A stretch of 41,231 nucleotides of DNA from an uncultured Leptospirales bacterium (GCA_964625825.1 CAZVFJ010000003.1:1-41231), one strand, 5' to 3'. Positions 1,046-40,823 are shown, counted from the first letter of the stretch. Program-made: numbers and translations. Notes: generated by a model from the sequence alone, not told the origin.

Positions 1046-1090
1046 GGAAGAGAAGCTATATATACCGGCAAAAAACGTTAAAGCAGCATA

Positions 1091-5904: not shown

Positions 5905-5940
5905 AAGGTGCTCTATAATAATACAGCGGGGTGGCTGCGA

Positions 5941-6477: not shown

Positions 6478-6500
6478 GTCATTTCACCGGAATTTGAATA

Positions 6501-7985: not shown

Positions 7986-8207
7986 TGTGTTCCCTTCGGC
8001 TTTAATTGTATTTACAGCAATTAATTAAGCACTGTATTAGTCAATATTAATTCACCAAAAAAAAGTTTCAAAAATTTATAGTTTTCTGTTTTATCAGTTA
8101 TTAAGAAAAGTCATTAATAAAGATGGAGAATTAACATTCCTGAAGTAACAGCAGTTGAAAATATAGCAAAGACGAGTTTTAGAATCAGACCTTAGGCAGG
8201 TATTGCG

Positions 8208-9371: not shown

Positions 9372-9522
9372 GGAAATGGCTCCCTTCGATTAATTTTGTT
9401 ATTTATTTAATGGATTTCCGCACTCGCGGGAATGTCAATGACGGCTCTTTATAAAATATTATAACGTTCATCTCTTTACTGAAAATCACTTCTGTCAATA
9501 TTAAAATCCAAGATTTTAAAGG

Positions 9523-10425: not shown

Positions 10426-10470
10426 GTTAAAAATAGAGCGGGTAAAATCAATAACAATTTAAAAGATTTC

Positions 10471-10516
10471 ATAGCGGCAAAAAAACCGGCATTTATTGCC
10501 GGTTTTTTGCCGCTAT
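10471..10516 (-). terminator. intrinsic terminator after the substrate-binding protein gene (hairpin is near-palindromic, potentially bidirectional)
   Basis: ATAGCGGCAAAAAAACCGGCA TTTAT TGCCGGTTTTTTGCCGCTAT. The inner stem ACCGGCA/TGCCGGT is flanked by A7/T6 runs and an outer GCGGC/GCCGC stem. It starts 12 nt beyond the stop at 10528. Confidence 0.8.
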
Positions 10517-10527
10517 GCTAATAAACT

Positions 10528-11517
10528 TTATTTTTTTATCATTTTACCGTCTTTAACAACACGGCTTGCTTTTTTAATAAGATCTTCAGGAATCGCGATT
10601 CCAAGCCTCTTTGCAACATCAAGGTTGATGAGGAGGTCTACATCAGACGGATCTGTCATGAAAAGAGTAGGAATAGTTTCAGGTTTTTCACCTTTTAGAA
10701 TACGGCTTATAAGTTTACCGGTTGCTTTACCCATCTTGTAGTAATCGAAGCCCCATGCCGCGAATACTTCATACTTTTCAGCTGAACTCGGATCAGCGGA
10801 CATTATAGGAAGCTTGTTCGTTTTGGCAACATCAGCAACCGCAGCAAGGGCTGAAATTACAGTATTGTCTGTGCTGAGATAGAAAGCGTCTACCCTTCCC
10901 GCAATAGACTGTGCAGCCTGTTTAACTTCTGAAGAGTTTGTAACTGTTGATTCAACAAATTCAATTCCCATCTCATCACATGCTTTTTTTGCCATCTTCG
11001 CAAGAGTAACAGCGTTTGCTTCATGGCTTGCATAAATATGTCCGAGCCTTTTTATATCTTTATATTTTTTAAGAAATGTTATCTGATCTTTAACAGGAGT
11101 CATATCAGATACTCCCGTTACATTTTTCTCCCCTGCTGTGAGAGACCTGACGAGTCCTGCGTCAACCGGGTCAGTTACGGCGGCATAGATTACTACAGCA
11201 TCCTTGATTGTATTTGTGAGTGCCTGGGCTGTGGGAGTCGCAATACCGACTGCAATATCCACTTTGTCAGCTTTGAATTTCTGCGCGATTGATGCAGCTG
11301 TGGAAATTTCACCATTTGCATTCTGAAGGTCATACGTGATGTTTGTATAGCCTTCCTCTTTAAGCTCATCCTGTATGCCTTTTTCAACTGAATCCAGCGC
11401 GGGATGTGACACTATTTTTGAAATCCCTATTTTTATGTTATCAGACTTGCTATCCTTACATCCGGCTGTAAATATCGCAATTGCCAGTATGATAAGGATA
11501 ATTGATACCTTTTTCAT
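10528..11517 (-). CDS. ABC transporter substrate-binding lipoprotein (ABC_sub_bind / BMP-like family)
   Basis: ATG at 11517 is preceded by GGAG and gives MKKVSIILIILAIAIFTAGC (lipobox FTAG-C). IGISKIVSHPALDSVEKGIQDELKEEGY is typical of this periplasmic binding family. No permease or ATPase genes are adjacent. Confidence 0.75.
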   Translation of the reverse strand: MKKVSIILIILAIAIFTAGCKDSKSDNIKIGISKIVSHPALDSVEKGIQDELKEEGYTNITYDLQNANGEISTAASIAQKFKADKVDIAVGIATPTAQALTNTIKDAVVIYAAVTDPVDAGLVRSLTAGEKNVTGVSDMTPVKDQITFLKKYKDIKRLGHIYASHEANAVTLAKMAKKACDEMGIEFVESTVTNSSEVKQAAQSIAGRVDAFYLSTDNTVISALAAVADVAKTNKLPIMSADPSSAEKYEVFAAWGFDYYKMGKATGKLISRILKGEKPETIPTLFMTDPSDVDLLINLDVAKRLGIAIPEDLIKKASRVVKDGKMIKK

Positions 11518-11643
11518 ATAACTCTCCTGCTTCATTTTTTATGGTAATAATAAACTGCTAATACATAACATTAGTCAAGAAATATGTTTGGCAATGCCGG
11601 ATTTTAGTTAAAATTTACAGGAAGTTAACCTCTAAATAATCAA

Positions 11644-11673
11644 TTGACACAGTGCCTGATAAAATTGTATCAT
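11644..11673 (+). promoter_or_regulatory. candidate sigma70-type promoter of the hem operon
   Basis: TTGACA (11644-11649), an 18-nt spacer, then TATCAT (11668-11673), about 40 nt upstream of the hemC ATG. Pattern match only. Confidence 0.3.
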
Positions 11674-11712
11674 TGATTGATTTTGGATTTTAAGTAACGG
11701 AAATTTAATATA

Positions 11713-12618
11713 ATGAAAAAGATAAGAATTGGCACAAGGGGGAGTGAACTGGCTCTCTGGCAGGCACATCATGTTGCCGGCCTCATTGGAACGGACCTCA
11801 CTGAACTTGTAATTATAAAGACAGAGGGTGACCGTATACAGAATTTTTCCTTTAACAAGATGGAAGGGAAGGGTTTTTTTACAAAAGAGATCGAAGAAGC
11901 TCTTCTTGAAAATAGAATTGATCTGGCAGTACACTCTCTCAAAGATCTTCCAACCGAGGATATCGAGGGCCTCAGGCTTGCTGCTATTCCGGTTCGTGCG
12001 GATTTTCATGATCTCCTTATTATGCAGGGCGATATTTATGAAAATAACGGCATTCTTAATATTAAAAGTGGCGCTCTTGTTGGGACAAGTTCCATGAGGA
12101 GAATGGCGCAGCTGAAGTCAATTGACCCGTCTCTCAGGGTGGAAGCTCTCCGTGGCAATGTAAACACAAGGCTCACTAAACTTAAAGGGCGTGAATATGA
12201 TGCGATAGTCATGGCAAAGGCGGCTGCCGAGAGAATTTCGCTCGACCTCTCCGGGTTTGTAGTCTATGAACTGGATGAAAGGATATTTTTGCCTGCTCCG
12301 GCCCAGGGTGCTCTCGGGCTTCAGATAAGGGCTGATGATGCATACACGGCCTCTATTGTGGAAAAGCTTACTCATGAAAATACAGAAAGAGTCGTAAGAG
12401 CAGAGCGCGCATTTCTGAAATGTTTTGGCGGAGGATGCCATGTTCCTCTTGGCGCTCTTGCGGAACTTGACGGTGAAGATATTCTTCTGAGAGGAGTGGT
12501 TGCTTCACCGGATGGAACTTTTGTGGCACGGGAATTCGCGACCGGCACAGACCCGGAAGCTGTGGGGGCGGAACTTGCCCGTTTGATCAAACTGAAAGGG
12601 GCTGACAAATATATATGA
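11713..12618 (+). CDS. hemC: hydroxymethylbilane synthase (porphobilinogen deaminase)
   Basis: IRIGTRGSELALWQA at the N-terminus. The dipyrromethane-cofactor Cys context GGCHVPLGA is present. Confidence 0.9.
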   Translation: MKKIRIGTRGSELALWQAHHVAGLIGTDLTELVIIKTEGDRIQNFSFNKMEGKGFFTKEIEEALLENRIDLAVHSLKDLPTEDIEGLRLAAIPVRADFHDLLIMQGDIYENNGILNIKSGALVGTSSMRRMAQLKSIDPSLRVEALRGNVNTRLTKLKGREYDAIVMAKAAAERISLDLSGFVVYELDERIFLPAPAQGALGLQIRADDAYTASIVEKLTHENTERVVRAERAFLKCFGGGCHVPLGALAELDGEDILLRGVVASPDGTFVAREFATGTDPEAVGAELARLIKLKGADKYI

Positions 12619-14105
12619 AAAATAAAGGATTCGTTTATCTTGTAGGAGCGGGGCCCGGAGACCCGGAACTTATTTCTGTAAAAGGAATGAGGGTACTTCG
12701 TGAGGCGGATTGTATAATATACGATTATCTGGCAGAGAAGAGTCTCCTGACCGGCTTGAAATGTGAGCTGATATACGTAGGGAAGCAGGGGAGTGACCAC
12801 ACTCTGAAGCAGGAAGAGATAAACAGCCTTATTGTGCAAAAAGCGGGTGAAGGCAAAACAATTGTCCGTCTTAAAGGGGGAGACCCGTTCATTTTCGGGC
12901 GCGGAGGCGAGGAGGCCGAGGAGCTCGTTGAGGCCGGGATTCCATTTGCTGTTATCCCGGGAATTTCATCTTTTTATTCAGCCCCGGCATACGCGGGTAT
13001 TCCACTAACACACAGGGATTTTTCCAGCGCTTTTGAAGTCGTGAGCGGGCACCGGAGGTCGGACACTGACAATACAGAGGATGTCAACTTCCCTGAGTAT
13101 GATCCTGAAAAAACATTCGTGTTTCTCATGGGAATGAAAAATCTTTCCCATATAAGGGAGAAACTTATAATTGAAAAAAATTTTCCTTCGGATATCCCGG
13201 TAGGAATAGTAACATGGGGTACAAGGCCGGAACAGCGGGTAGTGACGGCGCCTCTTTCTCGAATTACGGAGGAGATTGAAAGGGCTGGTCTTAAACCGCC
13301 GGCGATAATTATTATGGGGGGAGTTGTGTCGCTCCGGGAAAAGCTCCGCTGGTTCGATAACCAGCCGTTATTCGGCAAAAGAATTGTTGTTACCCGTACA
13401 AGGGAGCAGGCCTCAAGGCTCACCGGGAAGCTTGTGGCAATGGGGGCGAGGGTAATTGAATTTCCCACAATAGAAATTAAAAAAGAAGATGATCTGTCCG
13501 GGCTTCATAAAAGCTTCGGGAATCTCCATGAATATAATTGGATTATATTTACGTCACAGAATGCCGTGAATATTTTTTTTGATGAACTTTACAGTTCCGG
13601 GCGTGATGTGCGTTCACTCGGCACTGTGAGGATAGCTGTAATCGGCAAAGCGTCAGGTGATGAACTTAAAAAGTACGGGCTTATCCCTGATCTTGTCCCC
13701 GAAAAATTTGTAGCTGAATCACTCCTTGAAGAGATGGCTAAGCACGACATGAAGGGAAAGCGCGTGCTTATACCCTGTTCAGCAGGCGCGCGCATGCTCC
13801 TCCTGGAAGGGCTCATGGAACTCGGGGCTCACGTTGACAGGATTCATATTTACAGCGCGTCAAAACCGGAATTTATTGACGATAAACTTATTGAAGATGT
13901 AAAAAAAGCAGATATAGTAACATTCACAAGTTCTTCAACAGTAACAAATTTTTTTGATATAATACCGGAAATCGACGTACCGGTCGCAAGTATCGGGCCG
14001 ATAACAACTGAAACGCTTGTAAAGAAGGGGTACATCCCGGCTGTAACCGCCGGGGAGTACACAATCGACGGGCTGGTGAAAGCGCTTCTGGAGTATTACT
14101 CATAA
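12615..14105 (+). CDS. cobA/hemD: bifunctional uroporphyrinogen-III C-methyltransferase / uroporphyrinogen-III synthase
   Basis: N-terminal SUMT motifs VYLVGAGPGDPELISVKG and RLKGGDPFIFGRGGEE. The C-terminal half is HemD-like (RIVVTRTREQASRLTGKL...IFTSQNAV). The ATG overlaps the hemC stop (ATGA). Confidence 0.85.
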   Translation: MKNKGFVYLVGAGPGDPELISVKGMRVLREADCIIYDYLAEKSLLTGLKCELIYVGKQGSDHTLKQEEINSLIVQKAGEGKTIVRLKGGDPFIFGRGGEEAEELVEAGIPFAVIPGISSFYSAPAYAGIPLTHRDFSSAFEVVSGHRRSDTDNTEDVNFPEYDPEKTFVFLMGMKNLSHIREKLIIEKNFPSDIPVGIVTWGTRPEQRVVTAPLSRITEEIERAGLKPPAIIIMGGVVSLREKLRWFDNQPLFGKRIVVTRTREQASRLTGKLVAMGARVIEFPTIEIKKEDDLSGLHKSFGNLHEYNWIIFTSQNAVNIFFDELYSSGRDVRSLGTVRIAVIGKASGDELKKYGLIPDLVPEKFVAESLLEEMAKHDMKGKRVLIPCSAGARMLLLEGLMELGAHVDRIHIYSASKPEFIDDKLIEDVKKADIVTFTSSSTVTNFFDIIPEIDVPVASIGPITTETLVKKGYIPAVTAGEYTIDGLVKALLEYYS

Positions 14106-16585: not shown

Positions 16586-16658
16586 CATCCCCGAGGGGAT
16601 TCGAACCCCTGTTACCGGGATGAAAACCCGATGTCCTAGACCCCTAGACGACGGGGAC
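16586..16658 (-). tRNA. tRNA-Glu (anticodon UUC)
   Basis: Reverse complement is GTCCCCGTCGTCTAGGGGTCTAGGACATCGGGTTTTCATCCCGGTAACAGGGGTTCGAATCCCCTCGGGGATG. It folds as a cloverleaf with anticodon loop TTTTCAT and T-loop GGTTCGAATCC, and is near-identical in layout to E. coli tRNA-Glu. CCA is not encoded. Confidence 0.9.
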
Positions 16659-16681
16659 ATGCTATATGCTTACTTTATATG

Positions 16682-16754
16682 TGAGTCGCCGGGGAATTGA
16701 ACCCCGGACCCACTGCTTAAAAGGCAGTTGCTCTACCGACTGAGCTAGCGACTC
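16682..16754 (-). tRNA. tRNA-Lys (anticodon UUU)
   Basis: Reverse complement is GAGTCGCTAGCTCAGTCGGTAGAGCAACTGCCTTTTAAGCAGTGGGTCCGGGGTTCAATTCCCCGGCGACTCA. Acceptor stem is GAGTCGC/GCGACTC and the anticodon loop is CTTTTAA. CCA is not encoded. Confidence 0.9.
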
Positions 16755-30995: not shown

Positions 30996-31484
30996 CTAAA
31001 GCTTGCAGTTCAACTTCCCCATTTCAATAGCGTGCAGTCTTGCTTCTTTTCTCTGCTGAGCTTCGCAGTTTCTTCTCTTCTCATCATCTGTTTCAGGAAT
31101 AATTTGAGGTATCTTTCTCGGTTTTAAATTTTCATCAAGAGAAACGAATGTCATGTATGCTGACCCGGTATGACGAATTTCTCCAGTTACGACATTCTCA
31201 CTTTCAACGCGTACTCCTATTTCCATGGACTTTGTTCCTACAAAATTCACGCTGGCGATGACCCTGAGAAGATCTCCCACAAATACCGGATAGTGGAAGT
31301 CGAGCCTGTCAATAGAAGCTGTTACCACATTTCCCCCTGTATGCCTGACGCCGACAATGCCGGCCGTGTTATCTATAAGCTTCATAATAGTTCCGCCATG
31401 AACATTTCCCGCGAGGTTTGCGTCCTGCGGCATCATCTGCTGAACTACTGTAATGCTGCTTTCTTTTACTGTTTTACTTTCCAT
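30996..31484 (-). CDS. acyl-CoA thioesterase (hotdog fold, YciA/acyl-CoA hydrolase type)
   Basis: MPQDANLAGNVHGGTIMKLIDNTAGI is the family signature. GGAGG lies 8 nt upstream of the ATG. Confidence 0.85.
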   Translation of the reverse strand: MESKTVKESSITVVQQMMPQDANLAGNVHGGTIMKLIDNTAGIVGVRHTGGNVVTASIDRLDFHYPVFVGDLLRVIASVNFVGTKSMEIGVRVESENVVTGEIRHTGSAYMTFVSLDENLKPRKIPQIIPETDDEKRRNCEAQQRKEARLHAIEMGKLNCKL

Positions 31485-31743: not shown

Positions 31744-32510
31744 TTATTGATAAATTTCTTTTTTTAAAAGCATGGCAGATATGTGAGCTGCGTCCGTCCC
31801 TTTTCCTTTTCTGACCAGGGTTATTATTCCTGTATCTCCCGATCCTCCAGTAAATATACCGTAAGAGAAATGTGAATTTGTCCCGGAGATTACTGTACCT
31901 GTCTTTCCCCAGATGCCGGATGGCAAAACTCTCAGTGATGGATTTTTAATAAGATCTTTTTCTGTTATCTTCGCGGTACCATTCAGAAATGTTTTATGAA
32001 GGGCCTCTGATATTACCTCCATCGCCTCTGACGGTATTCTGTTACTTCTATGCATGTTGTGAATATACATGGATATTTTAATTAAATCTCTGATGGAGAT
32101 ATCTATTCTGAAGTCAAGTCCTGGAAGAATTTCACACCACTCCTTTTCGTCTTTAATATGCCGTTTTCTTCTGTAAAATTTCTGAACCATCTTTTAAAAT
32201 CATCGCGGTCAATTTTATCGTGAAGAGATGCGAAGTAGAGATTGCATGAATTATATATTGCGCTGCTTATATTCATCTCGCCGTGACCTTTTTTTTCCCA
32301 GCAATACTCCGGCAAAGGAAAATTATTATGTATGCCGCATGTAAATTTATAATTAAAGAAAAGGTCTCTTCTTTCCTGTGCGAGGTAGAAAACTGTAAAA
32401 AGTTTAAACAGGGAACCGCATGGAATTCTTCTCTCCAGTAAACCGGGACCGGTTGATGTATACCGGATGTCACCATTATCTATGTTACATATTGAAAGGT
32501 CTGACTTTTT
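31744..32510 (-). pseudogene. penicillin-binding (transpeptidase/beta-lactamase-fold) module, split over three reading frames with no start codon or signal peptide of its own
   Basis: All three PBP motifs occur in order but in shifted frames. GSLFK (SxxK, 32403-32414) and NSCNLYF (SxN, 32241-32249) lie in the frame of ORF 32103..32315; that frame is open upstream to 32510 without ATG, GTG or TTG. GKTGT (KTG, 31897-31905) lies in ORF 31744..32190. Each downstream frame is -1 relative to the preceding one. Confidence 0.7.
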
Positions 32511-33697
32511 TCATCAGATGTAATATATTTTAAATTTGGGTAGTAGTGTTCCAGAATTTCGTATCGGGAGTAACCCTTAGATGCGAGCTCAATGGCTCCA
32601 TCTAAACTCATCCCTGTACAGTGCCCAAGCCCTGAACCTGTAAATATAAAAGTTATACCATCTCTGCGAATGGAGTAATTATTACTTTTAATGAAGTTCC
32701 AACCCTTTTTCCTGTTTATTTTTAAACGGAAATCCTCCGGAGCGATTATATTTTCGCCACTGTCAGTTTGAATAAATATAATTTCATTTTCAGTATTAAA
32801 TTTTATATCACGAAGAGTTTCTCTCCCGCCAGAAAAAATTAAGGCTGATAGTTCATCTGTTGCGATCCTCGCTTCCCATGTTGTATGAAGGGTTCGGCTC
32901 AACTTCAGATTTTCGGAATAAAGTATATCAACAGGGGGCTTGATTTTTCTCACTCCGGAGTTGAATACAGATTCAGAGAAGAGTTTTCCTCCGCTTGATG
33001 AATGAAAGAAGAGGCCGCAGTTAAGGTTTTTTATATCTATAAAGGGTCCGCTTATCGGATTCAGTCCGCTTCTTCCTTGATATGACTGGCAACAAGTGAG
33101 GTCGCAGAAGTCGCAATCTTTATGCTTTTTTTTTAGAGATTCTATTCGGCACCTTCCATGTATTGCAAGTGCAAGAGCGTAGAGTGCCTCGTGGTTTTTT
33201 TTATCCAGGTATCCGAATTCAGCACATGATGAATCGATAGCATATTGTTCAATATTCTCTGTTATATATATTTTAAGCGAGTTATTATAATGAATTAATT
33301 CAAGAGGGAGAGGATATGTTCTCTTATTTCCTTTAATTTCTGTCCGGAAAGAACCGTCTGTTGTGCTGGAATAAATAATACAATTTTTGAAATATAGCGG
33401 GCGGTTTTTTGCAGATATATTATAATGTCCGCCGGAATATATGATTTTAAGAGAAGAAGTATATAACTCCGAATCATCATACCTTATCACTGTACCGGAA
33501 GGGAACGTGAAGTTGAGCTCTCCTGCCCCGATATCACTCATCCGGCGCAGATGTTTTGAAAGAATATTTATTTTTATCGAACCGGTTTTTGTGTTCTGGG
33601 AGAATGTCTCCGTCCCTTGTGGGATAAGGGTAATTATTACTGTGATGATGAGGGGGATGAAAATCCCCCTCATGAAATTTTTAATCATTATTGACAT
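32480..33697 (-). CDS. SpoIID/LytB-domain protein (lytic-transglycosylase-type fold), membrane-anchored or secreted
   Basis: N-terminal hydrophobic segment IFIPLIITVIITLIP. SpoIID hallmarks: EALYALALAIHGRCRI, DFCDLTCCQSYQG, FFHSSSGGKLFSE, and GSGLGHCTGMSLDGAIELASKGYSRYEILEHYYPN. The start is uncertain (ATG at 33697, 33688 or 33673) and overlaps or abuts the A2M stop at 33681. Confidence 0.8.
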   Translation of the reverse strand: MSIMIKNFMRGIFIPLIITVIITLIPQGTETFSQNTKTGSIKINILSKHLRRMSDIGAGELNFTFPSGTVIRYDDSELYTSSLKIIYSGGHYNISAKNRPLYFKNCIIYSSTTDGSFRTEIKGNKRTYPLPLELIHYNNSLKIYITENIEQYAIDSSCAEFGYLDKKNHEALYALALAIHGRCRIESLKKKHKDCDFCDLTCCQSYQGRSGLNPISGPFIDIKNLNCGLFFHSSSGGKLFSESVFNSGVRKIKPPVDILYSENLKLSRTLHTTWEARIATDELSALIFSGGRETLRDIKFNTENEIIFIQTDSGENIIAPEDFRLKINRKKGWNFIKSNNYSIRRDGITFIFTGSGLGHCTGMSLDGAIELASKGYSRYEILEHYYPNLKYITSDEKSQTFQYVT

Positions 33698-36600
33698 CAA
33701 TTATCGCGGGCTGGCTCCATCCCTGGATTGAGTCCTCATACATGCAGCTTATTCTTGATGGCCTCATTATGAAACTCCCCGGAAGTTCGGCGCGTATTGT
33801 GTATGCAACCTCGTACTCTTTCCCTTTTTCAACATCAGTGAAAAAGAAAACCATCCGGTTGTCGCGCTTCTCAACGTGTGAGTACGGCTGGAATTCGTTG
33901 TATGCAGACTCGTTAACCACTTCAAATCCTGAAGGGAGAAAATCTTCAAGTATCAAAAACCCGAAACTGTCATCCGCCCTGAACTTAACGCGGACAAGGA
34001 GTTCATCCCCGACAGATATTTTCCCCTTTTCATCTGCGCTTTGTGGTACAAGGTATTCCTGCATCTTAATGTCCTTGATTCTGTTGAGGTAGAACATGTC
34101 TCTCCTCGCCGTGATTCCGTTTGAGAGTGAACGTATACTCCTTTTTTCTGATTTGATGAACGCGAAGAGCCCCTGCGGCTTGAAGTAGAGAGTGCCGCTG
34201 ACAGCCGCAGAGAATACAGATCCATCAGGAAGGTCTCCGTCAGCTTTCAGTTTATATGAATTATTTTTACTGTCACGTGAAAGAGAAAATGTTTTTGAAA
34301 GCTGGTCCAGATTTCTGTTCGCTTTGAGGTTATATGAAATATCGCCAAGCTTATTTCCATTCAGTGAAAATTTTGTTTTTCCCTCGGTGCTGAATTCTGT
34401 GCTTCTCCCTTTCAGATAGTCGCATAACGCCAGGATTATTGTGCCGCTTTCCTTTGTTGAGCTCCAGCATTCGCCGTTAAAGCTCCGGGCCAGCGCCCCA
34501 ACAGCCTGCGGTGCAAGGTCGGAGGTGTCTCCCGCAAGGGTAAGCGCGGAGAGGACATGGGCAGTAATCTCACTCCTTCCTCCGGGCCATAACCATTTCT
34601 GTTCCCTGGTTTCAGGCCAGTATATTCCAGCTGAATCTTTCCTGGCATTCCGGGATATTTTATTTTTTAGAATTCCGGTTGCCTCTGAAATTTCACGGAC
34701 TTCATAATCAGGGAGTTTATCCGCTCCCGAAAAAACTGAAACTGCCTTGAGAAGATTTGCAGCCTGGTATGAATTTATCTTTTCATCAAAAGCGATCCGT
34801 TTGAATGAAGCGTGCTCCCATCTCTGGTAGAGCGCGTTAATGTACACAAGGTAAGAAAGCTCATCATTGTTACTCTTCCCCTGATCTTCAAAGAATCTTG
34901 CAACTGCCGCAAGCCCCTGTTCCATAGTGCCGGCATTTACACCGTAACCGTTTTCTTTCAGGTAAAAAAGCGAGAAGAGCGCATAGCCTGTCAGGTACCC
35001 GTTACCCCTGTCTCCGTCCCACCAGCCCCATGTGCCGTCATAATTCTGTCCTGCTTCAATTTTTTTAATACCCTCCGGGATGTCATTTTTAATATCAGCC
35101 TTAAGCTTATCAGGGATAAAGTCAGAGTATTCCTTATTTTTGAGAAGAGCAAGTACCGCCAGTTTCGGGATAAACCTGTTTATTGTCTGTTCTATGCATC
35201 CGTACGGGTAGTCGTTGAGATATTCAGCGGCTTTGATCATCTGAAGTACGGGTGATGGTGTGAGAGTGACTGTAACCTCTTCCGGGACAAACTCAAAGTC
35301 TTCGGTCCCTTTTACAGGTTTGATTTCGATCTCTCCTCCTGTGGCTGCATTGCCTGAACCCGTGATGACGTATTTAATTCCTCTCTTTTCAACAGGGATA
35401 GTATGTTTAACAGTATCTCCCTTTTTGTCTTTTGTTAGGGCGGAATATTCAAGTGATATTAAATCCTTTCCCTCCGGTATATCCAGAGTATAAAATTTTC
35501 TCGTGGAGCCGTACCCTGTGAGACTCACAGGAAAATCTTTGTCAGGAGCAATACTTTTCCCGTCAGCCTTAAGCTCGGTGGTAATTTTTTCTATTCCTGA
35601 ATCTGTATTGTTATTTATTATCCCGATAATTCCGGCTCTGTCCCCTTCAATAAGAAACCTGGGTTTACCTATGCGGGCGATAAGGTCCTGCGTTGAGATA
35701 AATTTTTTCCTTGCCTCACCCATGCGTCCTGCGAGATCGTGGCCCCGCGCGGTGAGCCTCCATGTTGTGAGGTTGTCGGGAACCCTGAACGAGATCTCCG
35801 CTTCGCCATTTCTGTCAGTCTTAATCCCCGCCTCCCAGAATGCTGTGTCTTTAAAATCCTCCCTTACTTTCACCTGGGCATCCTTTCCTGCGCCAGCGAG
35901 CAAAGTAATAGGGTAGGAGTAAGTTGTGAGTACCCAGTTGGAAATTTTTGAGTAGAAATATCCGGAAATTTCAGGAGTCCTGTCTGAACGTACCATGAAG
36001 ATCGATTCGTCAACAGCAGCAAGAGAAATGTCAGCCGAAACAGGTGTGCCTTTAAGATCCCCGGCTTTCACCTTTATTTTGACAGTATCTCCGGGTGAAT
36101 ACTTCTCTTTGTCGGGAGTAAGTATCAGATTAAGCCTTACATCGTCTACAGGGAGAGTTACTTCTTTTTCCGCAATATGGAGGGCTCTGCCACGCTGCAT
36201 CGCGCATCGGACAAAGAGGTTCGGGGCGAGCTTTGTGTCTATGTTAAATTTTACAGGAATGATGTTTTTTGTCATCTTTATTACCTGGTATTCGTAAACA
36301 TCTCTGCCTTCCAGGGTAACGAGAACATAGGAATCAGTGAATCTGCTTTTTATCAGACATGTTATTTCACCGGCTTTGTCGAGTTCAGTTTTATTTACAG
36401 TAAGTTCCAGGTCTTTCAGCTTTGAGTCGGCATTTCCGCCTGCGTCGTTGTATATCCAGATTATCTTTGAACCTGTAATTACGTTGCCCCTGCTGTCTTT
36501 TCCTGACGCGGTGAGATCAAACTCCCCATATGCGGTAAAGTCGGAGGGGAGAGTGATTACAGTTTTTCCGGCTGAGTCAGTTGTTACTTTTCGTGTGAAG

Positions 36601-39047
36601 TACGGCCTGCTGTCATGAATGTAAACTCTCTGTACCGGCTTCCAGATATACTTCAGAAGATTTAATTCAATGGCTGTGCTCACAGGTTCTCCTGAATGTG
36701 TCAGGGCAGTGACTGTAACTCTCTTCTCACTCTTCGCGCCGAAAAAGTTTTCTTCCGGAGAGAGCTTTATGAAAAATTCACCGCGGCCTATTTTTACTGT
36801 TTTCTGCGATGTTATTGTTATGTTTGATTTGTCTGTAACAGTTGCTTCAAGTACAAGTTCTCTATCATAGGGATAGTTCCCTGAAGCGATCTTGAGGAGG
36901 GCTGTGCCGCCTGAATCTGTATACTTTTCACCTTCAAGCTTTAGCCTTGAGTATGATGAGCCTGAGCCGTATTCATCAGCCATAGGGTCTTCGTCAGTTG
37001 TAATATTTTTTTCGTAGAACCTGTATTTAACAAGCGCATTTGCCAACGGCGCGCCGAAGAAGTATTTTGATTCAATCTTAAACTCGGCCATTTCGCCATT
37101 TATAAAGAAATCCTTCGAGGGGAGTATCTCCACTTTAAATTCAGGTTTCCTGTACTGCTCAATATAGAAGGAGCCCGTACCGTACATGTCATCCTTTTTA
37201 AATCCCGCCCTGATTGTGAAATATCCGAGTTCGGCATCTGCCGGAATATCCGCGTTTCCGTGAACTGTGCCCCAGCCATCCAGTTCCATTGCTCCGGAAG
37301 CAATAACTTTTCCAGAGTATGATTTCTGTATGGAGTAGAAGAGTGTTCTGTTTTTTATCGGAGAGAATTTATCTTCCATTTTTTTAGCGAGAATTTTAAA
37401 AAAGACCTTGTCCCCTGTACGGTAAACCGGCCTGTCTGTATAAATGAAGAGTTTGTCCTTCTCACTCCTGTAGTAGTTTGATGCTCCGGCGCTGCATATG
37501 GCATAACTACCTTCGTCAGAGACAGCAAGAAGGAACATCTTATCGTCTGACTTTACAGAAGTTTGAAAGATCCCGTTATTACCTGTTCTGCCCTGCGCAA
37601 GAATTTTTACCGGGAGTTTTTCGATATCGATGCCCTCATTTTCATTAAGGGTTTTCTCTCCGGCTGTCTTCTTGAAATTGTGGTCATAGATTGCAACAGA
37701 TACATTTTTTGCCGGCATGTTTTGAACAAGGTCTGTTATATAGGCGCTTACGTTTTCCGGGGAGCGTTTTACAACAACACCAAGATTTGTAACAGTGAAA
37801 AATTTGCGTGAGAGAATATCCCCTTTCCCTTTAACTTCGATACAGTATCCCCCGGATGATAGAGGCTTGTTGATTTTCACAGAAAAGTACATCCATTCGT
37901 AAGGATTGAAGTCTTTTACAGATTCGTCCCATTCAGTTACAGTTTTGAATCCTGAATTATCCGGTGTCAGTAACTCCGGGTCCCGGTTCTTCGCGAGAAA
38001 AATTTCAAATGGAACTTTGTAGACCTTCACGTGAACTGAATCAAGTCGAAGAGTGCGAAGATTAAAGTCCACCTCGTTTCCTGGAGTGAATGTATACCTG
38101 TAAGAGTGTATATTTATCTCAGGAGATTTTGCCTCCATATTATAATTCAGGTTGGCGAGATTCCGGCCTTCGTTAACCCTGATGTTTTTCATTTTAATTC
38201 CCTGAAATCCCTGGTGCGACAGGGTCAGGGAGTAGTTCCCCGGTTTTACATCTTCAAGTATGAATGAACCATCACGGTATGTTACATTAGAGTAACTGTA
38301 TCTTCCCTCTGCCGTGACATTGATATTCACTGCCGGAGAGTTGAGCCCTTTTATCTCAACTTTACCTGATAGTGTGGCCGGCCTGTACATAACCATTTGC
38401 AGCCTGAAGTTCTCCGCTGCCTTTATGCCTGATAGTGATGCTGTCTCTGTAATGAATCCATTCCTGGAAAATGTTACGAGGTATGGCCCGGCTTTTAGCT
38501 TTTTGAAACTGTAATTTCCTTTACTATCGCTTCTGGTGAAAACAGGTTTTGCGCTGTCATTGCCGTTCTCTCCTTCGTAATAGCCATAAGAGGTTTTTAG
38601 GGAGATCTCCACATCAGTAATAGCTTTGCCGGAACTGTCTTTTACATTACCGGATATTATAGATTCTTTTGTCAGTTTGATGTCATTTTTAACCGAGGAT
38701 ATGCTTGATGTTTCAATATATGAAACATATCCGTCAGCTGATATTTCAATGTCGTATTTTATATACGGGATGAAGTCATTGATCCTGTAATAACCTTTCC
38801 AGTCGGTTTTTGTTTTATAGTACCCGACACCTCTGTTCGCATTTTTTATTTCCACTACCGCACCCTTTACAGGCTTCCCTGTTCCGGAGTCTGTGATGGT
38901 CCCTTCAATATATGCCTTCTGTTCAAGTTCTGAGTGTATTTTATAGGCGGTACCTTCATCGGAGTTTACAACCTCCGGCATGGCATCTGTTAAAAATATG
39001 ACGGAGAGCATCACGGTGCATAGACCCGCAATCCATGATTTTTTCAT
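33681..39047 (-). CDS. alpha-2-macroglobulin family protein, thioester-containing, secreted
   Basis: 1788 aa. Signal peptide MKKSWIAGLCTVMLSVIFLTDA. Three N-terminal CarboxypepD_reg-like repeats (GTITDSGTGKPVKGAVVEI..., ISGNVKDSSGKAITDVEISL..., LSGKVEIKGLNSPAVNINV...). A long array of MG-like beta-sandwich sequence follows. The thioester motif YPYGCIEQ has CIEQ at 35187-35198 (Cys 1284). Confidence 0.85.
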   Translation of the reverse strand: MKKSWIAGLCTVMLSVIFLTDAMPEVVNSDEGTAYKIHSELEQKAYIEGTITDSGTGKPVKGAVVEIKNANRGVGYYKTKTDWKGYYRINDFIPYIKYDIEISADGYVSYIETSSISSVKNDIKLTKESIISGNVKDSSGKAITDVEISLKTSYGYYEGENGNDSAKPVFTRSDSKGNYSFKKLKAGPYLVTFSRNGFITETASLSGIKAAENFRLQMVMYRPATLSGKVEIKGLNSPAVNINVTAEGRYSYSNVTYRDGSFILEDVKPGNYSLTLSHQGFQGIKMKNIRVNEGRNLANLNYNMEAKSPEINIHSYRYTFTPGNEVDFNLRTLRLDSVHVKVYKVPFEIFLAKNRDPELLTPDNSGFKTVTEWDESVKDFNPYEWMYFSVKINKPLSSGGYCIEVKGKGDILSRKFFTVTNLGVVVKRSPENVSAYITDLVQNMPAKNVSVAIYDHNFKKTAGEKTLNENEGIDIEKLPVKILAQGRTGNNGIFQTSVKSDDKMFLLAVSDEGSYAICSAGASNYYRSEKDKLFIYTDRPVYRTGDKVFFKILAKKMEDKFSPIKNRTLFYSIQKSYSGKVIASGAMELDGWGTVHGNADIPADAELGYFTIRAGFKKDDMYGTGSFYIEQYRKPEFKVEILPSKDFFINGEMAEFKIESKYFFGAPLANALVKYRFYEKNITTDEDPMADEYGSGSSYSRLKLEGEKYTDSGGTALLKIASGNYPYDRELVLEATVTDKSNITITSQKTVKIGRGEFFIKLSPEENFFGAKSEKRVTVTALTHSGEPVSTAIELNLLKYIWKPVQRVYIHDSRPYFTRKVTTDSAGKTVITLPSDFTAYGEFDLTASGKDSRGNVITGSKIIWIYNDAGGNADSKLKDLELTVNKTELDKAGEITCLIKSRFTDSYVLVTLEGRDVYEYQVIKMTKNIIPVKFNIDTKLAPNLFVRCAMQRGRALHIAEKEVTLPVDDVRLNLILTPDKEKYSPGDTVKIKVKAGDLKGTPVSADISLAAVDESIFMVRSDRTPEISGYFYSKISNWVLTTYSYPITLLAGAGKDAQVKVREDFKDTAFWEAGIKTDRNGEAEISFRVPDNLTTWRLTARGHDLAGRMGEARKKFISTQDLIARIGKPRFLIEGDRAGIIGIINNNTDSGIEKITTELKADGKSIAPDKDFPVSLTGYGSTRKFYTLDIPEGKDLISLEYSALTKDKKGDTVKHTIPVEKRGIKYVITGSGNAATGGEIEIKPVKGTEDFEFVPEEVTVTLTPSPVLQMIKAAEYLNDYPYGCIEQTINRFIPKLAVLALLKNKEYSDFIPDKLKADIKNDIPEGIKKIEAGQNYDGTWGWWDGDRGNGYLTGYALFSLFYLKENGYGVNAGTMEQGLAAVARFFEDQGKSNNDELSYLVYINALYQRWEHASFKRIAFDEKINSYQAANLLKAVSVFSGADKLPDYEVREISEATGILKNKISRNARKDSAGIYWPETREQKWLWPGGRSEITAHVLSALTLAGDTSDLAPQAVGALARSFNGECWSSTKESGTIILALCDYLKGRSTEFSTEGKTKFSLNGNKLGDISYNLKANRNLDQLSKTFSLSRDSKNNSYKLKADGDLPDGSVFSAAVSGTLYFKPQGLFAFIKSEKRSIRSLSNGITARRDMFYLNRIKDIKMQEYLVPQSADEKGKISVGDELLVRVKFRADDSFGFLILEDFLPSGFEVVNESAYNEFQPYSHVEKRDNRMVFFFTDVEKGKEYEVAYTIRAELPGSFIMRPSRISCMYEDSIQGWSQPAIIDVNND

Positions 39048-39649
39048 TTTTTATCCTCCCTGATTGTCACTGCCCTGAAACGGCTTATCCGGCAGTTTGT
39101 ATAATTATTATTTCTGTTTAACCTGCTGGTCGTTCTGAATTCAGCCGGGACAACAACAATCCCGGAGGTACTGTCACATTCAATAAATACTCCGAAATGG
39201 CTTATGTCAATACTATTTAGATTTTCTACCTGCTCAGGGTGTGACGCGATTGTAATGACAATATCCATTTCCTCAATCTCATATCGTTCCAGTGGCTTAT
39301 ACCTGGGATCATAAGAGAGAGCCCCTTTCAAATAATTCCTGAGCATAAGGGATATGTCTGTTTCGCTGTGGTCGAAAGCGCCGAAGCAACCGCGAATTTT
39401 TCCTTTTTGTATAAGGGTGATAAAGAGCCCTGTGCTGCCGTAAACAGGGGGGAGTGTTATATTAAGGGATTTCAACTCCCGCTCTTTCATTTCTATTGAG
39501 AGAGCAGTATATTTCATCCATTTCATTAAAATCGTTTTATCAGCGGATACTGAAAACTTCTCCCACTGGCGGAGAGGGTCTGTGCTGTTCCAGAAACAGA
39601 GGGTAAGGATAATAAAAACCGGTACTGTTTTACACAGAAATTTTTTCAT
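39044..39649 (-). CDS. AMMECR1-domain protein with N-terminal signal/lipoprotein-like sequence
   Basis: MKKFLCKTVPVFIILTLCFWNS is an export signal with a possible atypical lipobox LTL-C. AMMECR1 hallmarks: GLFITLIQKGKIRGCFGAF, DPRYKPLERYEIEEMDIVITIAS, ISHFGVFIE and SGIVVVPAE. The stop overlaps the A2M ATG (ATGA), with AGGGAGGA inside its 3' end. The ORF-track TTG start at 39667 is possible. Confidence 0.7.
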   Translation of the reverse strand: MKKFLCKTVPVFIILTLCFWNSTDPLRQWEKFSVSADKTILMKWMKYTALSIEMKERELKSLNITLPPVYGSTGLFITLIQKGKIRGCFGAFDHSETDISLMLRNYLKGALSYDPRYKPLERYEIEEMDIVITIASHPEQVENLNSIDISHFGVFIECDSTSGIVVVPAEFRTTSRLNRNNNYTNCRISRFRAVTIREDKK

Positions 39650-39725
39650 AAGTATAATATATTTCAAGCTGGAGTTTAGTCTATAAAATAATCAGCGGAC
39701 AGGCCTGTGCTTTAAGAATGCAGAT

Positions 39726-40712
39726 TTATTTTTTCAGGTACATCAGCCGGTCTGCTTCATTAATCAGTGAATCGATCTCTTTAACCTGGCCTTTTGTAAT
39801 GCCATGTGATATTGAAATCCGGATGTTCCCGTCCGGAGTTGAATAAAATGTACCTGTTAAATTTCTGTCAATCCGCTCAATAATATGAGATGTATTTTCA
39901 TGAGTGGTAACTTTTATTATAGTCAGAAATTCATCACCACCTATTCTGAAAAGGAGGTCATCGTTTCTGAATATATTTTTAAGTTTAGCAGAAATAGCAA
40001 CAAGCGCTTTGTCTCCTTCCCGATGGCCGTACATATCGTTTATAGTTTTGAAGTTATTTACATCCATGTATATCACAATAATCTCTTCTTCTAAGTCCGA
40101 TTGCCTTCTCGACGGGATACTTTCATGGGACCATTGAGATATATATTCATTCAGCATTTTTCTGTTAAAGAGACCTGTAAGGCTGTCGTGGCAGCTCAGT
40201 TCAATTACCTGCTGATATAAAGAGGAATTAGCAAGAGCGATAGCGGTAAAATCGGCAATAGTTTTCAGGACAAGATGGTCATCTTCAGAGAAAGTTTTTT
40301 TATTTTCAGTATTCACAATCTCAATAACACCATAAATTACCTCTTTGTGGATCATGGGTACCGCGATAATTGAGCGTGTTTTAAAATTGATGAGCCTGTC
40401 GACCCTGTTTGAAAAGCGCGGGTCAAAGCGGGCATCAGGGACAAAGATCGATTCTCCGGTTTTGGCAACAGTCCCGGCTATTCCCTCCCCGGGCTTAAGC
40501 CTGAATTGCCTGAGGCGTTCAATATCGTTCCCCTGGATATAAATAAAATATAGTTCGCCGGATGTGTGGTCAAGCCGGAGCAGGCTCCAGTGTTCAGGAT
40601 CAAAGAACTGCTTTATTTCGGACATCACACCGTCGATAACCTGATGTATTTCAAGTGACGAGGTAATTAGTTTGCCAATATTGGCATACATCTGTTTGGT
40701 TTCTGTATCCAT
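39726..40712 (-). CDS. GAF-domain diguanylate cyclase (GGDEF)
   Basis: N-terminal GAF (LKPGEGIAGTVAKTGESIFVPD). DSLTGLFNRK, then an intact RIGGDEF active site with an RNDD I-site (RxxD) at the canonical 5-residue spacing. The start is uncertain (ATG at 40712, or TTG at 40736 in the ORF track). Confidence 0.85.
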   Translation of the reverse strand: MDTETKQMYANIGKLITSSLEIHQVIDGVMSEIKQFFDPEHWSLLRLDHTSGELYFIYIQGNDIERLRQFRLKPGEGIAGTVAKTGESIFVPDARFDPRFSNRVDRLINFKTRSIIAVPMIHKEVIYGVIEIVNTENKKTFSEDDHLVLKTIADFTAIALANSSLYQQVIELSCHDSLTGLFNRKMLNEYISQWSHESIPSRRQSDLEEEIIVIYMDVNNFKTINDMYGHREGDKALVAISAKLKNIFRNDDLLFRIGGDEFLTIIKVTTHENTSHIIERIDRNLTGTFYSTPDGNIRISISHGITKGQVKEIDSLINEADRLMYLKK

Positions 40713-40823
40713 AGTCTTTAATTTTTTAATCTGCAAATTATTTAATAAGTTAAATAATGGGCAAGTATTTTTTAATTCAATTTATTCTTTGAGCGAGAAC
40801 ACTCCTCCCTCTGACAGGGAGTG

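Follow-up and report, generated by a model that had tools for sequence, protein, structure and literature searches.

Described bacterial A2M loci and the cassette in the window

Two types of operon have been described for bacterial alpha-2-macroglobulins (A2Ms). In type I a thioester A2M is paired with PBP1C, interpreted as a protease trap combined with wall repair, and in type II the A2M has no thioester (PMC5764988). Type I is represented by E. coli yfhM (ECAM)-pbpC and the Salmonella A2M, and type II by the mag/yfa operons, E. coli yfaA-yfaT-yfaS-yfaQ-yfaP and P. aeruginosa magABCDEF. The literature consulted on bacterial A2Ms deals with few Proteobacteria and with these two locus types. 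The window analyzed here, a stretch of 41,231 nucleotides from an uncultured Leptospirales bacterium, contains on its minus strand three co-directional genes in the order AMMECR1-like gene, thioester A2M gene and SpoIID-transpeptidase fusion gene (gene 3), with overlapping coding regions at both junctions. A sequence-only reading of this DNA had described four abutting or overlapping genes; the strand, the coordinates, the order and the overlaps hold, while the number of genes becomes three. Its assignments to the AMMECR1, thioester A2M, SpoIID-type and PBP transpeptidase folds were borne out by HMM searches, profile comparison with the PDB and structure prediction. The cassette is probably one transcription unit, to judge from the sequence.

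The cassette resembles a type I locus in that an A2M with thioester, bait region, TED and MG10 domain is immediately followed by a co-directional gene whose product, a bifunctional peptidoglycan enzyme anchored in the membrane, includes a penicillin-binding transpeptidase (TP) domain. It differs in that the enzyme has a SpoIID-type domain in place of GT51 and is without the PBP1C C-terminal domain, the TP is nearer to class B PBPs and YfaQ than to the TP of PBP1C, the A2M carries three extra N-terminal CarboxypepD_reg domains and is 23% identical to YfhM (over 877 aa, E 7e-24), and a gene for a putatively exported AMMECR1-like protein precedes the A2M. As had been proposed, the partner is without GT51: neither the cassette nor any of the 17 window ORFs scanned gave a match to this domain, and this result, together with a weak likeness of the TP half to the TP domain of E. 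coli PBP1C (PbpC; E 0.015), excludes a type I A2M-PBP1C locus. Like type II, the cassette comprises several genes, the A2M being accompanied by accessory proteins related to peptidoglycan, but its A2M keeps the thioester, and no Pfam match to DUF1175 (YfaT/MagC), DUF2138, DUF2135 or DUF2300 (YfaQ/MagE) was obtained in the cassette or its immediate neighbors, the scan covering window ORFs other than the eleven between 12.6 and 27.2 kb; on these two grounds a type II operon was rejected.

We found no published description of the cassette in the literature searched, which has the two operon types above (PMC5764988); this agrees with the earlier suggestion of an operon type not previously described. 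All cassette members come from metagenome-assembled genomes (MAGs) of uncultured organisms. We infer that the cassette is a previously undescribed form of a known periplasmic defense module, the "A2M plus peptidoglycan enzyme" kind, and on balance we favor, with some reserve, the reading that the AMMECR1-like protein, the A2M and the SpoIID-TP fusion make up a three-gene periplasmic envelope cassette acting in defense and repair.

The A2M belongs to the thioester class

The A2M gene (33681-39047, minus strand) encodes 1788 aa, in which Pfam places three N-terminal CarboxypepD_reg domains followed by MG2, bait-region, A2M, TED (PF07678) and bMG10 domains (the matches include PF01835, PF07703, PF00207, PF17973 and PF11974). 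Its top PDB sequence matches are E. coli YfhM (5a42, 4ziq; E 9e-22) and Salmonella A2M (4u48). Translation places the GCIEQ thioester motif at residues 1283-1287 (35187-35201, minus strand), within YPYGCIEQT in residues 1279-1288; CxEQ is invariant in the A2M alignment and kept in every partner A2M examined. With CxEQ in the TED and with MG, bait and MG10 domains, this is an A2M of the thioester (type I) kind.

The length and the intact GCIEQ given in the sequence-only reading were both recovered, and the secretion that it proposed is predicted from a signal-like N-terminus. No canonical lipobox was seen in the window A2M. A lipobox with Asp directly after its Cys (...SC-D...) occurs in many orthologous A2Ms and also in E. 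coli YfhM; Asp at position +2 is a signal for inner-membrane retention. The A2M would be either secreted or membrane-tethered.

An AMMECR1-like protein with a signal-peptide-like N-terminus precedes the A2M

The first gene of the cassette (39044-39649, minus strand) encodes 201 aa from its ATG, or 207 aa from an alternative upstream TTG at 39667. The product matches Pfam PF01871 (E 2e-17, 63.5 bits against a cut-off of 25) and contains the signature RGC[FY]G, in which R86-G87-C88-x-G90 is invariant among 31 homologues. Its AF2 model (pLDDT 84) has as top PDB folds the AMMECR1 structures 1zq7, 1wsc and 1vaj (PH0010), with E values of 1e-10 to 3e-11, so that PF01871, the RGCxG signature and the fold are common to this protein and the AMMECR1 family. 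In contrast to that family, the cassette protein and every orthologue have an N-terminus that resembles a signal peptide: the segment reads MKKFLCKTVPVFIILTLCFW in the window protein, and a hydrophobic N-terminus follows basic residues in all of the 40+ orthologues (40+/40+). The earlier description of an exported AMMECR1-like protein fits these observations, export being a prediction from the N-terminus. To our knowledge, those AMMECR1 proteins that have been studied reside in the cytoplasm or the nucleus.

Membership in the AmmeMemoRadiSam system was considered and rejected, since TIGR04335 (AmmeMemoRadiSam system protein A) scores 51 bits against a cut-off of 99 and no Memo-like or radical SAM gene adjoins the AMMECR1-like gene, whose neighbors are a GGDEF gene and the A2M gene.

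At the junction with the A2M gene (39044-39061, minus strand), an SD-like element, AGGGAGGA (39061-39054), lies 6 nt upstream of the A2M ATG, and the AMMECR1 TGA overlaps this ATG as ATGA (39047-39044), just as the sequence-only reading had it. The SD-like element and the overlap mark the junction as one of predicted translational coupling. In the loci surveyed, the AMMECR1-like gene always lies next to an A2M gene, and only to those whose A2M bears the N-terminal triple CarboxypepD_reg extension. Because of this strict co-occurrence and the coupling, we speculate that the AMMECR1-like protein is probably an accessory factor of the A2M, for its maturation, stabilization or anchoring, and not of the cell-wall enzyme. 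The tie between an exported AMMECR1-like protein and a specific partner would make the function of the domain experimentally approachable.

Gene 3 encodes a SpoIID-transpeptidase fusion in relatives

About 80 homologues of gene 3 are single proteins of 640-705 aa carrying PF00905, and an intact fusion of 662 aa, P0002, served as the reference for the window gene. PF00905 scores are low, at 25-34 bits (cut-off 22.1) in three of the four relatives tested and 21.4 bits in the fourth, P0071. The P0002 model (pLDDT 87, pTM 0.86) matches both class B PBPs and the SpoIID structure 5i1t. Invariant in 29 fusion proteins are E160, S431-x-x-K434, S486-C-N488 and K605-T606. In relatives, gene 3 is thus predicted to encode a single membrane-anchored bifunctional peptidoglycan enzyme, a new architecture in which domains with predicted glycan-cleaving and cross-linking activities are joined. 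Since SpoIID and TP stand in one protein, the analogy with the bifunctional PBP1C is closer than the earlier reading held.

The SpoIID-like ORF of the window (32480-33700, with its ATG at 33697) starts ahead of the A2M stop (33683-33681), giving an overlap of 17-20 nt, in line with the start at or near the A2M stop noted before; four close relatives share a 19-nt overlap at this junction. The window ORF scores 55.4 bits with TIGR02669, below the curated cut-off of 83, and PF08486 (cut-off 23 bits) does not match the window protein and reaches 12 bits in relatives. The fusion-family profile, however, matches SpoIID 5i1t with E 2e-13 over 224 profile positions, and the modeled fusion fold matches the same structure with a Foldseek probability of 1.0 and a TM-score of 0.60. 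E160 lies in QYAxDSAxAE, with the spacing of the SpoIID motif EEYVxGVVxSE. Family profile and model together make a convincing case that the window ORF is SpoIID-like, its own scores being below cut-off. Those SpoIID enzymes that have been studied work on denuded glycans in the course of sporulation. The fusion shares with the SpoIID/LytB family (B. subtilis, B. anthracis and C. difficile SpoIID; 4rwr, 5i1t, 5txu), in addition to the catalytic-domain profile match, the Glu at the catalytic position and the motifs EAL..A...R, DxxxCQxY, ffhsssGG and G.GHG.G.S..GA..LA..GY.y.eIL.HYY. It differs from this family in occurring in non-sporulating diderm lineages, in being joined to a transpeptidase, in falling under the NCBIfam curated cut-off and escaping PF08486, and in that no partners of the SpoIIP or SpoIIM type were seen with it.

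The best matches of the TP domain, by sequence and by fold, are the class B PBPs 7rd0, 7rcz, 8yjx and 7kis; the TP family profile matches 7rd0 with E 3e-12 and also matches PBP2 and SpoVD. With class B PBPs (PBP2/MrdA, PBP3/FtsI, SpoVD) the fusion has SxxK, SxN, KTG and an N-terminal membrane anchor in common. It differs from them in that the SpoIID-like domain replaces the non-catalytic pedestal domain and in that the TP is short (~255 aa) and has a conserved Cys/His insert (C456, C468-W469, H474-G475), which it shares with YfaQ. Profile and model comparisons thus place the TP domain in the class B type, and the proposal that the transpeptidase half of PBP1C had been kept is unsupported as a statement of descent, the likeness to PBP1C being limited to the E of 0.015 given above.

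Gene 3 is disrupted in this genome

In the window, gene 3 is broken into three minus-strand pieces. Piece 1 (32480-33697) encodes 405 aa comprising the N-terminal membrane anchor and a complete SpoIID-like domain, 61% identical to P0002 residues 1-405. Piece 2 (32157-32486) carries the N-terminal part of the TP half in a shifted frame with no start codon, is 65% identical to P0002 407-516 and contains, by three-frame translation, SxxK (SLFK, 32414-32403) and SxN (SCN, 32249-32241). Piece 3 (31744-32157), in the third frame, carries the C-terminal part of the TP half, is 57% identical to P0002 ~523-654 and contains KTG (31905-31897), which falls inside a 148-aa ORF (31744-32190). DNA comparison with relatives locates the first lesion as a 7-nt deletion between ACATA repeats at 32483-32486 that creates a TAG (32482-32480) directly behind the SpoIID half. 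The second is a net loss of 19 nt at ~32157, where conserved TGG codons are 53 nt apart as against 72 nt in five relatives. SxxK/SxN and KTG consequently lie in two different frames downstream of the TAG, and the three motifs, which share one polypeptide in 29 relatives, do not do so here. The fourth gene of the sequence-only reading, which was to carry all three, therefore does not stand: since the three pieces are collinear with single proteins of ~660 aa, its third and fourth genes are one disrupted gene. From the sequence, the TP half is probably not made in this genome, and the product would be at most an anchored SpoIID-only protein.

The break appears very recent, because conservation is no lower in the remnants than in the intact part and the remnants have no internal stops. 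A minority variant or an assembly artifact is another possibility. If the break were such an artifact or variant, the full SpoIID-TP enzyme would be made. The undiminished 57-65% identity to P0002 and the open shifted frames would be expected if the gene were intact and its sequence in error, the second lesion can be decomposed into an in-frame difference of 18 nt in length and the loss of one base beside a short A run, and the source is a MAG contig. The first lesion, on the other hand, is a clean 7-nt loss between direct repeats, atypical of read errors, and all other long ORFs on the 41-kb contig are intact (for example those of 744, 1014, 881 and 1788 aa), and thus the assembly is not generally indel-prone. 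We regard an artifact or minority variant as a possibility with appreciable weight, yet the less probable one.

Proposed function of the cassette

By homology to YfhM/ECAM and Salmonella A2M, the A2M is predicted to trap proteases that reach the periplasm, cleavage of the bait being followed by covalent binding of the protease through the thioester. The N-terminal domain of the fusion, a predicted lytic transglycosylase fold of the SpoIID type with a catalytic Glu, would trim or clear damaged glycan strands, and the TP domain, with SxxK, SxN and KTG, would re-crosslink stem peptides. The fusion enzyme occupies the place held beside YfhM by the bifunctional PBP1C (GT51 plus TP). In the most likely working model, by analogy with these systems, the A2M neutralizes invading proteases while its partner clears damaged glycan and re-crosslinks the wall.

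The cassette might instead be a unit for housekeeping or developmental wall remodeling. The A2M would then regulate periplasmic peptidases of the cell itself, or the TP would anchor it to peptidoglycan. The partners are all peptidoglycan-related (SpoIID, TP and, in related loci, DUF1175/NlpC-P60-like and VanW), SpoIID and the SpoVD-like PBPs found among the PDB matches are developmental enzymes in Firmicutes, and MagC (DUF1175) of the type II complex is reported to bind peptidoglycan (Zouhir 2021, as cited in PMC10318531). The A2M nevertheless keeps the bait region, TED and thioester, and its characterized homologues trap proteases (PMC5764988); that this genome has lost the TP half also suggests an enzyme dispensable for growth. 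We consider such a remodeling unit unlikely and retain the defense and repair model.

The partnership recurs across phyla, with fused or separate enzymes

A survey of species-representative genomes found a thioester A2M directly upstream in 41 of 47 fusion loci and, among the fusion loci with an upstream A2M, an AMMECR1-like gene in 36 of 36. The order AMMECR1, A2M, fusion was kept in all five neighborhoods from relatives at 35-55% identity. The cassette-bearing loci come from Spirochaetota and Smithellaceae/Syntrophaceae, and dozens of species-level genomes have this gene order, more than expected by chance; the neighborhood is thus conserved in relatives. Six fusion paralogues have no A2M beside them, and the enzyme is therefore not obligatorily tied to the A2M.

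TP and SpoIID also occur as separate, adjacent genes beside a thioester A2M, in WOR-3 (L069) and in a deltaproteobacterial MAG (L075). More generally, thioester A2Ms beside separate TP and SpoIID genes, usually with a DUF1175 gene, were found in WOR-3, in other genomes of the Desulfobacterota type and in many metagenomic loci. These loci lend some credit to the four-gene reading of the window, in which separate SpoIID and PBP-fold genes come after the AMMECR1 and A2M genes, as does the stop of the window SpoIID ORF ahead of a 148-aa ORF that begins with ATG. Every relative in this lineage, however, has one protein of 640-705 aa; the SpoIID/TP junction is uninterrupted in all 52 fusion loci from other genomes (a single HSP across it); the window pieces are collinear with the fusion across three frames; neither SLFK nor SCN has a start codon upstream in its frame; the 148-aa ORF covers just the KTG third of the domain; and separate genes run TP then SpoIID, the reverse of the window order. 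For this lineage four separate genes are refuted, and we hold that arrangement to be highly improbable here.

A chance adjacency, or one confined to this genome, has a negligible likelihood and is refuted by the surveys, since only the six unlinked paralogues speak for it, against the co-occurrence in species-level genomes of two phyla, the overlapping stop and start codons, and the fusion or fission and reordering of the same modules in other phyla.

Among 35 well-flanked metagenomic thioester-A2M loci, picked by similarity to the window A2M and hence biased toward its relatives, 21 have a SpoIID and/or TP gene nearby, one has a PBP1C-like gene and 13 have none of the partners sought. In this sample, and in uncultured Spirochaetota, Desulfobacterota and WOR-3, the usual partner of a thioester A2M is SpoIID-type plus TP, fused or separate, with PBP1C rare. 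Gene content in these genomes points to the window arrangement as one variant of a wider, multi-phylum link between thioester A2Ms and SpoIID and transpeptidase genes, and the partnership would strengthen the view that A2Ms act with peptidoglycan enzymes.

The TP homology also suggests an origin for the enigmatic YfaQ/MagE protein. By hhalign (probability 90-93%, E 4e-7 to 1.4e-6), the N-terminal residues 39-166 of YfaQ show remote homology to the TP half, YfaQ GSLWK aligning with the SxxK of the fusion, and YfaQ carries the Pfam SpoIID domain PF08486 (27 bits against a cut-off of 23), which holds family-wide; hhalign found no significant similarity between the SpoIID half of the fusion and the YfaQ C-terminus. 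Unlike the fusion, YfaQ has lost SxN (reading SCG) and KTG (reading KTW), and its domains are in the reverse order, TP-like then SpoIID-like. A tentative and rather doubtful extension would make thioester A2M, SpoIID-type domain and PBP-type TP an ancient multi-phylum triad, YfaQ/MagE its degenerate fused descendant, and the exported AMMECR1-like protein a dedicated maturation or anchoring factor for CarboxypepD_reg-extended A2Ms; if true, this last role would for the first time give a concrete biochemical way into the function of the AMMECR1 domain. In related environmental thioester-A2M loci a YfaT-like DUF1175 gene lies upstream, as in type II.

Organization of the cassette and structure of the macroglobulin

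On the minus strand between 30996 and 40736, a gene for a GAF-GGDEF diguanylate cyclase (39726-40736), whose end lies 59-77 nt before the cassette, and a gene for a YciA-like 4HBT thioesterase (30996-31484), just downstream of it, bracket three closely packed reading units. The first encodes an AMMECR1-like protein (39044-39649; 201 aa from its ATG, identical to P0084 of the protein collection) and the second an alpha-2-macroglobulin (A2M; 33681-39047, 1788 aa). The third begins as a SpoIID-like ORF with an ATG at 33697, 17 nt before the A2M stop, within the 10-20 nt or so at which the sequence-only reading had placed this start. The A2M is composed of three N-terminal CarboxypepD_reg domains followed by MG2, bait-region, A2M, TED and bMG10 domains (Pfam), and its thioester stretch, YPYGCIEQT, is intact; length, domains and thioester all bear out the proposed 1788-aa A2M with an intact GCIEQ. 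The closest solved structures are those of E. coli YfhM (ECAM), to which the window A2M is 23% identical (E 7e-24), and of the Salmonella A2M.

The third gene is a single SpoIID-transpeptidase gene, interrupted in the window

Used as a query, the 406-aa SpoIID-like ORF retrieved about 80 protein clusters; essentially all are 640-705 aa long, and most carry a C-terminal PF00905 transpeptidase (TP) domain. The closest full-length relative, P0002 (662 aa), was found by tblastn to match the window in three collinear pieces on the minus strand, in three frames: residues 1-405 at 33697-32483 (61% identity), residues 407-516 at 32486-32157 (65%) and residues about 523-654 at 32157-31756 (57%). The SLFK and SCN motifs both lie in the second piece, with no start codon upstream of either, and KTG lies in the third, in a different frame from them. 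The SpoIID/TP junction is uninterrupted in 52 of 52 fusion loci from other genomes, and the syntenic locus L006, which shares the GGDEF, 4HBT and LeuRS neighbours, carries an intact 670-aa fusion gene. Given this collinearity and the unbroken relatives, what had been read as separate SpoIID and PBP-fold genes is one interrupted gene.

The window SpoIID-like ORF alone gives no Pfam match and scores 55 bits against TIGR02669 (cut-off 83); its assignment is drawn from a family profile and a structure model. A profile built from 29 family members aligns with C. difficile SpoIID (5i1t) across the catalytic domain (E 2e-13), with the characteristic motifs of the SpoIID family present in the match, and E160 (P0002 numbering) is invariant within QYAxDSAxAE, spaced as in the SpoIID motif EEYVxGVVxSE. 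The same profile matches class B PBPs (7rd0, E 3e-12; also PBP2, SpoVD and MrdA), and S431-x-x-K434, S486-C-N488 and K605-T606 are invariant across the 29 fusion proteins. The AlphaFold2 model of P0002 (pLDDT 87, pTM 0.86) has a helix at its N-terminus that could serve as a membrane anchor, and is matched by Foldseek to class B PBPs and to SpoIID 5i1t (TM 0.60 on target). Profile, invariant motifs and predicted fold thus support the earlier calls of a SpoIID-like and a PBP-fold domain.

Two lesions separate the three pieces. At the first, the window reads ...GTA ACA TAG ATA... versus ...GT[TA] ACA TAC AAC ATA... in relatives, corresponding to the loss of 7 nt between ACATA repeats and creating a TAG at 32482-32480. 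At the second, two conserved TGG codons are spaced 53 nt apart in the window versus 72 nt in five relatives. Because the frame-shifted second and third pieces are as similar to P0002 as the intact piece and contain no stops, the damage is of very recent date or else spurious. No other long ORF of the contig is broken, and read errors do not typically take the form of a 7-nt deletion between repeats; we therefore consider that the fusion gene has probably undergone a genuine, recent inactivation in this genome. Programmed frameshifting was rejected on the strength of the uninterrupted junction in all 52 relatives. With genuine inactivation, the TP half has most likely been lost here, and what remains of the cassette would be AMMECR1, A2M and an anchored protein with the SpoIID half alone.

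Conservation of the cassette

Five contigs encoding proteins 35-55% identical to the window SpoIID-like protein, including a 4.9-Mb chromosome and Smithella/Smithellaceae MAGs, were looked up, and all five have the order AMMECR1, A2M, fusion, with an A2M of about 1790-1845 aa. When the family alignment was run against a single genome for each GTDB species, 76 loci emerged, and the fusion was located by tblastn in 52 distinct loci. A thioester A2M lies directly upstream in 41 of the 47 fusion loci whose upstream DNA exceeds 3 kb, and an AMMECR1-like gene precedes the A2M in every A2M-fusion locus with enough DNA (36/36), so that the neighbourhood survey suggested by the sequence-only reading finds the cassette conserved. 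CxEQ is kept in every partner A2M of the fusion loci, and many of these proteins have a lipobox Cys followed by Asp. The cassette is solid and widely conserved, on purely computational evidence from uncultured organisms, and the window holds a damaged copy.

Six full-length fusion genes (33-37% identity to P0002) occur on their own in unrelated surroundings, the upstream 4-10 kb or so being free of A2M and AMMECR1 genes, and look like a paralogous, unlinked subgroup (L029, L041, L045, L046, L049 and L053; the match lies at about 10001-12000, or at 4525-6474 in L045).

The AMMECR1-like protein

The AMMECR1-like protein matches Pfam AMMECR1 with 63.5 bits (cut-off 25), the only significant PDB matches of its structure model (pLDDT 84) are the AMMECR1 structures 1zq7, 1wsc and 1vaj, and the R-G-C-x-G signature is invariant among its homologues. 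Its N-terminus has a basic stretch followed by a hydrophobic segment, and a signal-peptide-like N-terminus is present in every orthologue; the domain assignment of the proposed exported AMMECR1-like protein is thus upheld, with export predicted from the N-terminus. The AMMECR1 TGA overlaps the A2M ATG as ATGA (39047-39044), with AGGGAGGA six bases 5' of that ATG, inside the end of the AMMECR1-like gene, so that the overlap and Shine-Dalgarno-like stretch described before can be read directly in the sequence.

Among metagenome loci, an AMMECR1 gene is present in 5/5 with upstream DNA and an extended A2M, defined as one that aligns from about residue 1-50 and so includes the CarboxypepD_reg extension, versus 0/74 others. 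In two loci (L088 and L099) the order is VanW, AMMECR1, A2M, with SpoIID or TP absent within 6 kb. Since AMMECR1 is limited to extended A2Ms and occurs in these two loci without SpoIID/TP, it tracks the A2M rather than the cell-wall enzyme. Together with the predicted translational coupling, this restriction to A2Ms with extra N-terminal domains indicates that the AMMECR1-like protein is most likely an A2M accessory factor. VanW-domain genes lie directly 5' of the AMMECR1-like gene at L099:2646-4042, L088:4314-5738 and L004/L005:3013-4338, and VanW is likewise 5' of AMMECR1 in Smithella loci.

A2M, SpoIID and TP beyond the fusion lineage

The distant matches of the GTDB-species scan, in WOR-3, a Kryptonia-labelled bin ('bacterium JGI-2'), 'Deltaproteobacteria', Myxococcota and Elusimicrobia, also adjoin thioester A2Ms, which are about 1400-1550 aa long and have neither the N-terminal extension nor an AMMECR1 gene. 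The WOR-3 locus L069 has the order DUF4015, DUF1175, A2M, TP (298 aa; PF00905, E 5e-27), SpoIID (502 aa; PF08486, E 1e-20), then a 468-aa ORF. A deltaproteobacterial locus (L075) has TP (E 4e-42) and SpoIID (E 2e-17) genes 3 kb 3' of the A2M. Separate genes are ordered TP then SpoIID, and the Spirochaetota/Smithellaceae fusion SpoIID then TP; persistence of the linkage through fusion, fission and order inversion is strong evidence that the modules are functionally connected. In the WOR-3 locus (L069:3976-5467 and 12320-13726), the DUF4015 product encoded upstream is a putative glycosyl hydrolase, and the 468-aa ORF follows SpoIID.

A metagenome scan with the A2M alignment and the patterns [YF]PYGCxEQT and [NH]xDG[TGS]WGWW yielded 80 thioester-A2M loci, whose A2Ms mostly share about 25% identity with that of the window; these loci are the best matches to it among the first 600 pattern matches, a biased sample that gives no global frequencies. 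Loci were sorted by tblastn with E. coli PbpC, YfaQ/T/A/P and the WOR-3 and deltaproteobacterial genes as references, and partners were counted in the 35 of these best 80 whose flanks reach at least 1.5 kb upstream and 4 kb downstream. Of the 35, 19 carry SpoIID and TP as separate genes, and in nearly all of these 19 a YfaT-like DUF1175 gene precedes the A2M by about 0.5 kb; the fusion, SpoIID alone and a PBP1C-like GT51+TP gene occur in one locus each, and none of these partners was detected by tblastn in 13. The scan shows that A2M with SpoIID and TP is common among environmental bacteria. In all nine 'DUF1175 only' loci the DNA ends within 2.3 kb downstream. In about 30 of L094-L163 the thioester A2M is preceded, at a distance of about 0.5 kb, by a YfaT/MagC-like DUF1175 gene; apart from having a thioester A2M, these environmental loci resemble yfa/mag-type operons.

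Relation to known operon types and proposed role

The literature consulted recognises two A2M locus types: type I, a thioester A2M adjoining pbpC, read as protease trap plus peptidoglycan repair, and type II, a thioester-less A2M within the six-gene mag/yfa operon (PMC5764988, PMC3735191). MagC (DUF1175) is described as NlpC/P60-like and peptidoglycan-binding (Zouhir et al. 2021, as presented in PMC10318531).

Comparison with E. coli YfaQ ('tandem DUF2300', the MagE counterpart; L083:2149-3798, family alignment A3) points to a relationship with type II. YfaQ residues 312-374 match Pfam SpoIID (PF08486) with 27 bits against a cut-off of 23, the match on which its SpoIID nature rests and which is consistent throughout the family. 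Residues 39-166 align with the first half of the fusion TP domain (hhalign probability 90-93%, E 4e-7 to 1.4e-6), covering GSLWK versus GSLFK, a Cys-containing insert and SCGLYF versus SCNxYF; KTW stands in place of KTG. The SpoIID half of the fusion gave no significant hhalign match to YfaQ, by single sequence or family alignment (E 0.4-0.9), and the YfaQ profile, run against the PDB, matched SpoIID only marginally (E about 0.5). We suggest with moderate confidence that YfaQ/MagE is a degenerate TP-like plus SpoIID-like protein and, with the same confidence, that the cassette is the catalytically intact, thioester-bearing cousin. The sequence-only reading had the transpeptidase half of PBP1C retained; the TP half shows no specific relation to the PBP1C TP domain (E 0.015), which leaves such descent unsupported.

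The juxtaposition of an A2M with a peptidoglycan enzyme parallels YfhM-PBP1C. Judging from characterised homologues, the A2M would be exported and would trap proteases covalently once its bait is cleaved, and the fusion would be a membrane-anchored periplasmic enzyme whose SpoIID half may cleave glycan strands as a lytic transglycosylase and whose TP half may acylate or cross-link stem peptides as a serine transpeptidase. The parts, their motifs and their linkage are observed; a joint role in neutralising the protease and mending or tidying the wall is suggested by the YfhM-PBP1C parallel, and is the most economical model and one towards which we lean.

An A2M with a peptidoglycan-enzyme partner is already known as a kind of system. 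In the literature searched, we met no account of the SpoIID-TP fusion as a partner, of an exported AMMECR1 component or of how broadly A2M, SpoIID and TP are associated; there, the sole match for SpoIID and macroglobulin was unrelated cyanobacterial proteomics, AMMECR1 with bacterial macroglobulin was absent, DUF2300 appeared in an unrelated context only, and no description of YfaQ/MagE as degenerate TP-like plus SpoIID-like was encountered. The cassette thereby provides testable leads on YfaQ/MagE and AMMECR1.

Neighbouring genes

A promoter/terminator scan found no more sites than in shuffled sequence and no clear terminator 3' of the cassette. The GAF-GGDEF position upstream of the cassette is kept in L006, not in more distant relatives. 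The window 4HBT thioesterase has no signal peptide, and its gene has its own promoter-like site (TTGACA-17-TATTAT, 31601-31573). Spirochaetota and Smithella loci repeatedly have a YciA-like 4HBT acyl-CoA thioesterase gene just 3' of the cassette (L001:12309-12797, L006:12181-12669, L002:14260-14757, L004:15147-15608). Elsewhere in the window, the first ten other large ORFs (134-12618) are ordinary housekeeping genes, such as those for alanine racemase, GlpX, HemC and 3-hydroxyacyl-CoA dehydrogenase; two neighbouring tRNA genes lie on the minus strand at 16586-16754 (Rfam tRNA, 57 and 72 bits); and ORFs at 20.6-30.2 kb correspond, by synteny with L006, to SbcC, TetR, peptidase and LeuRS genes. 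A 744-aa fusion of ATP-grasp/L-amino-acid-ligase-like and FMN-dependent dehydrogenase domains is encoded on the minus strand at 1128-3362, and two relatives (L001:21098-end, L002:20237-end) have the same architecture some 10 kb away from the cassette, beside beta-oxidation genes.
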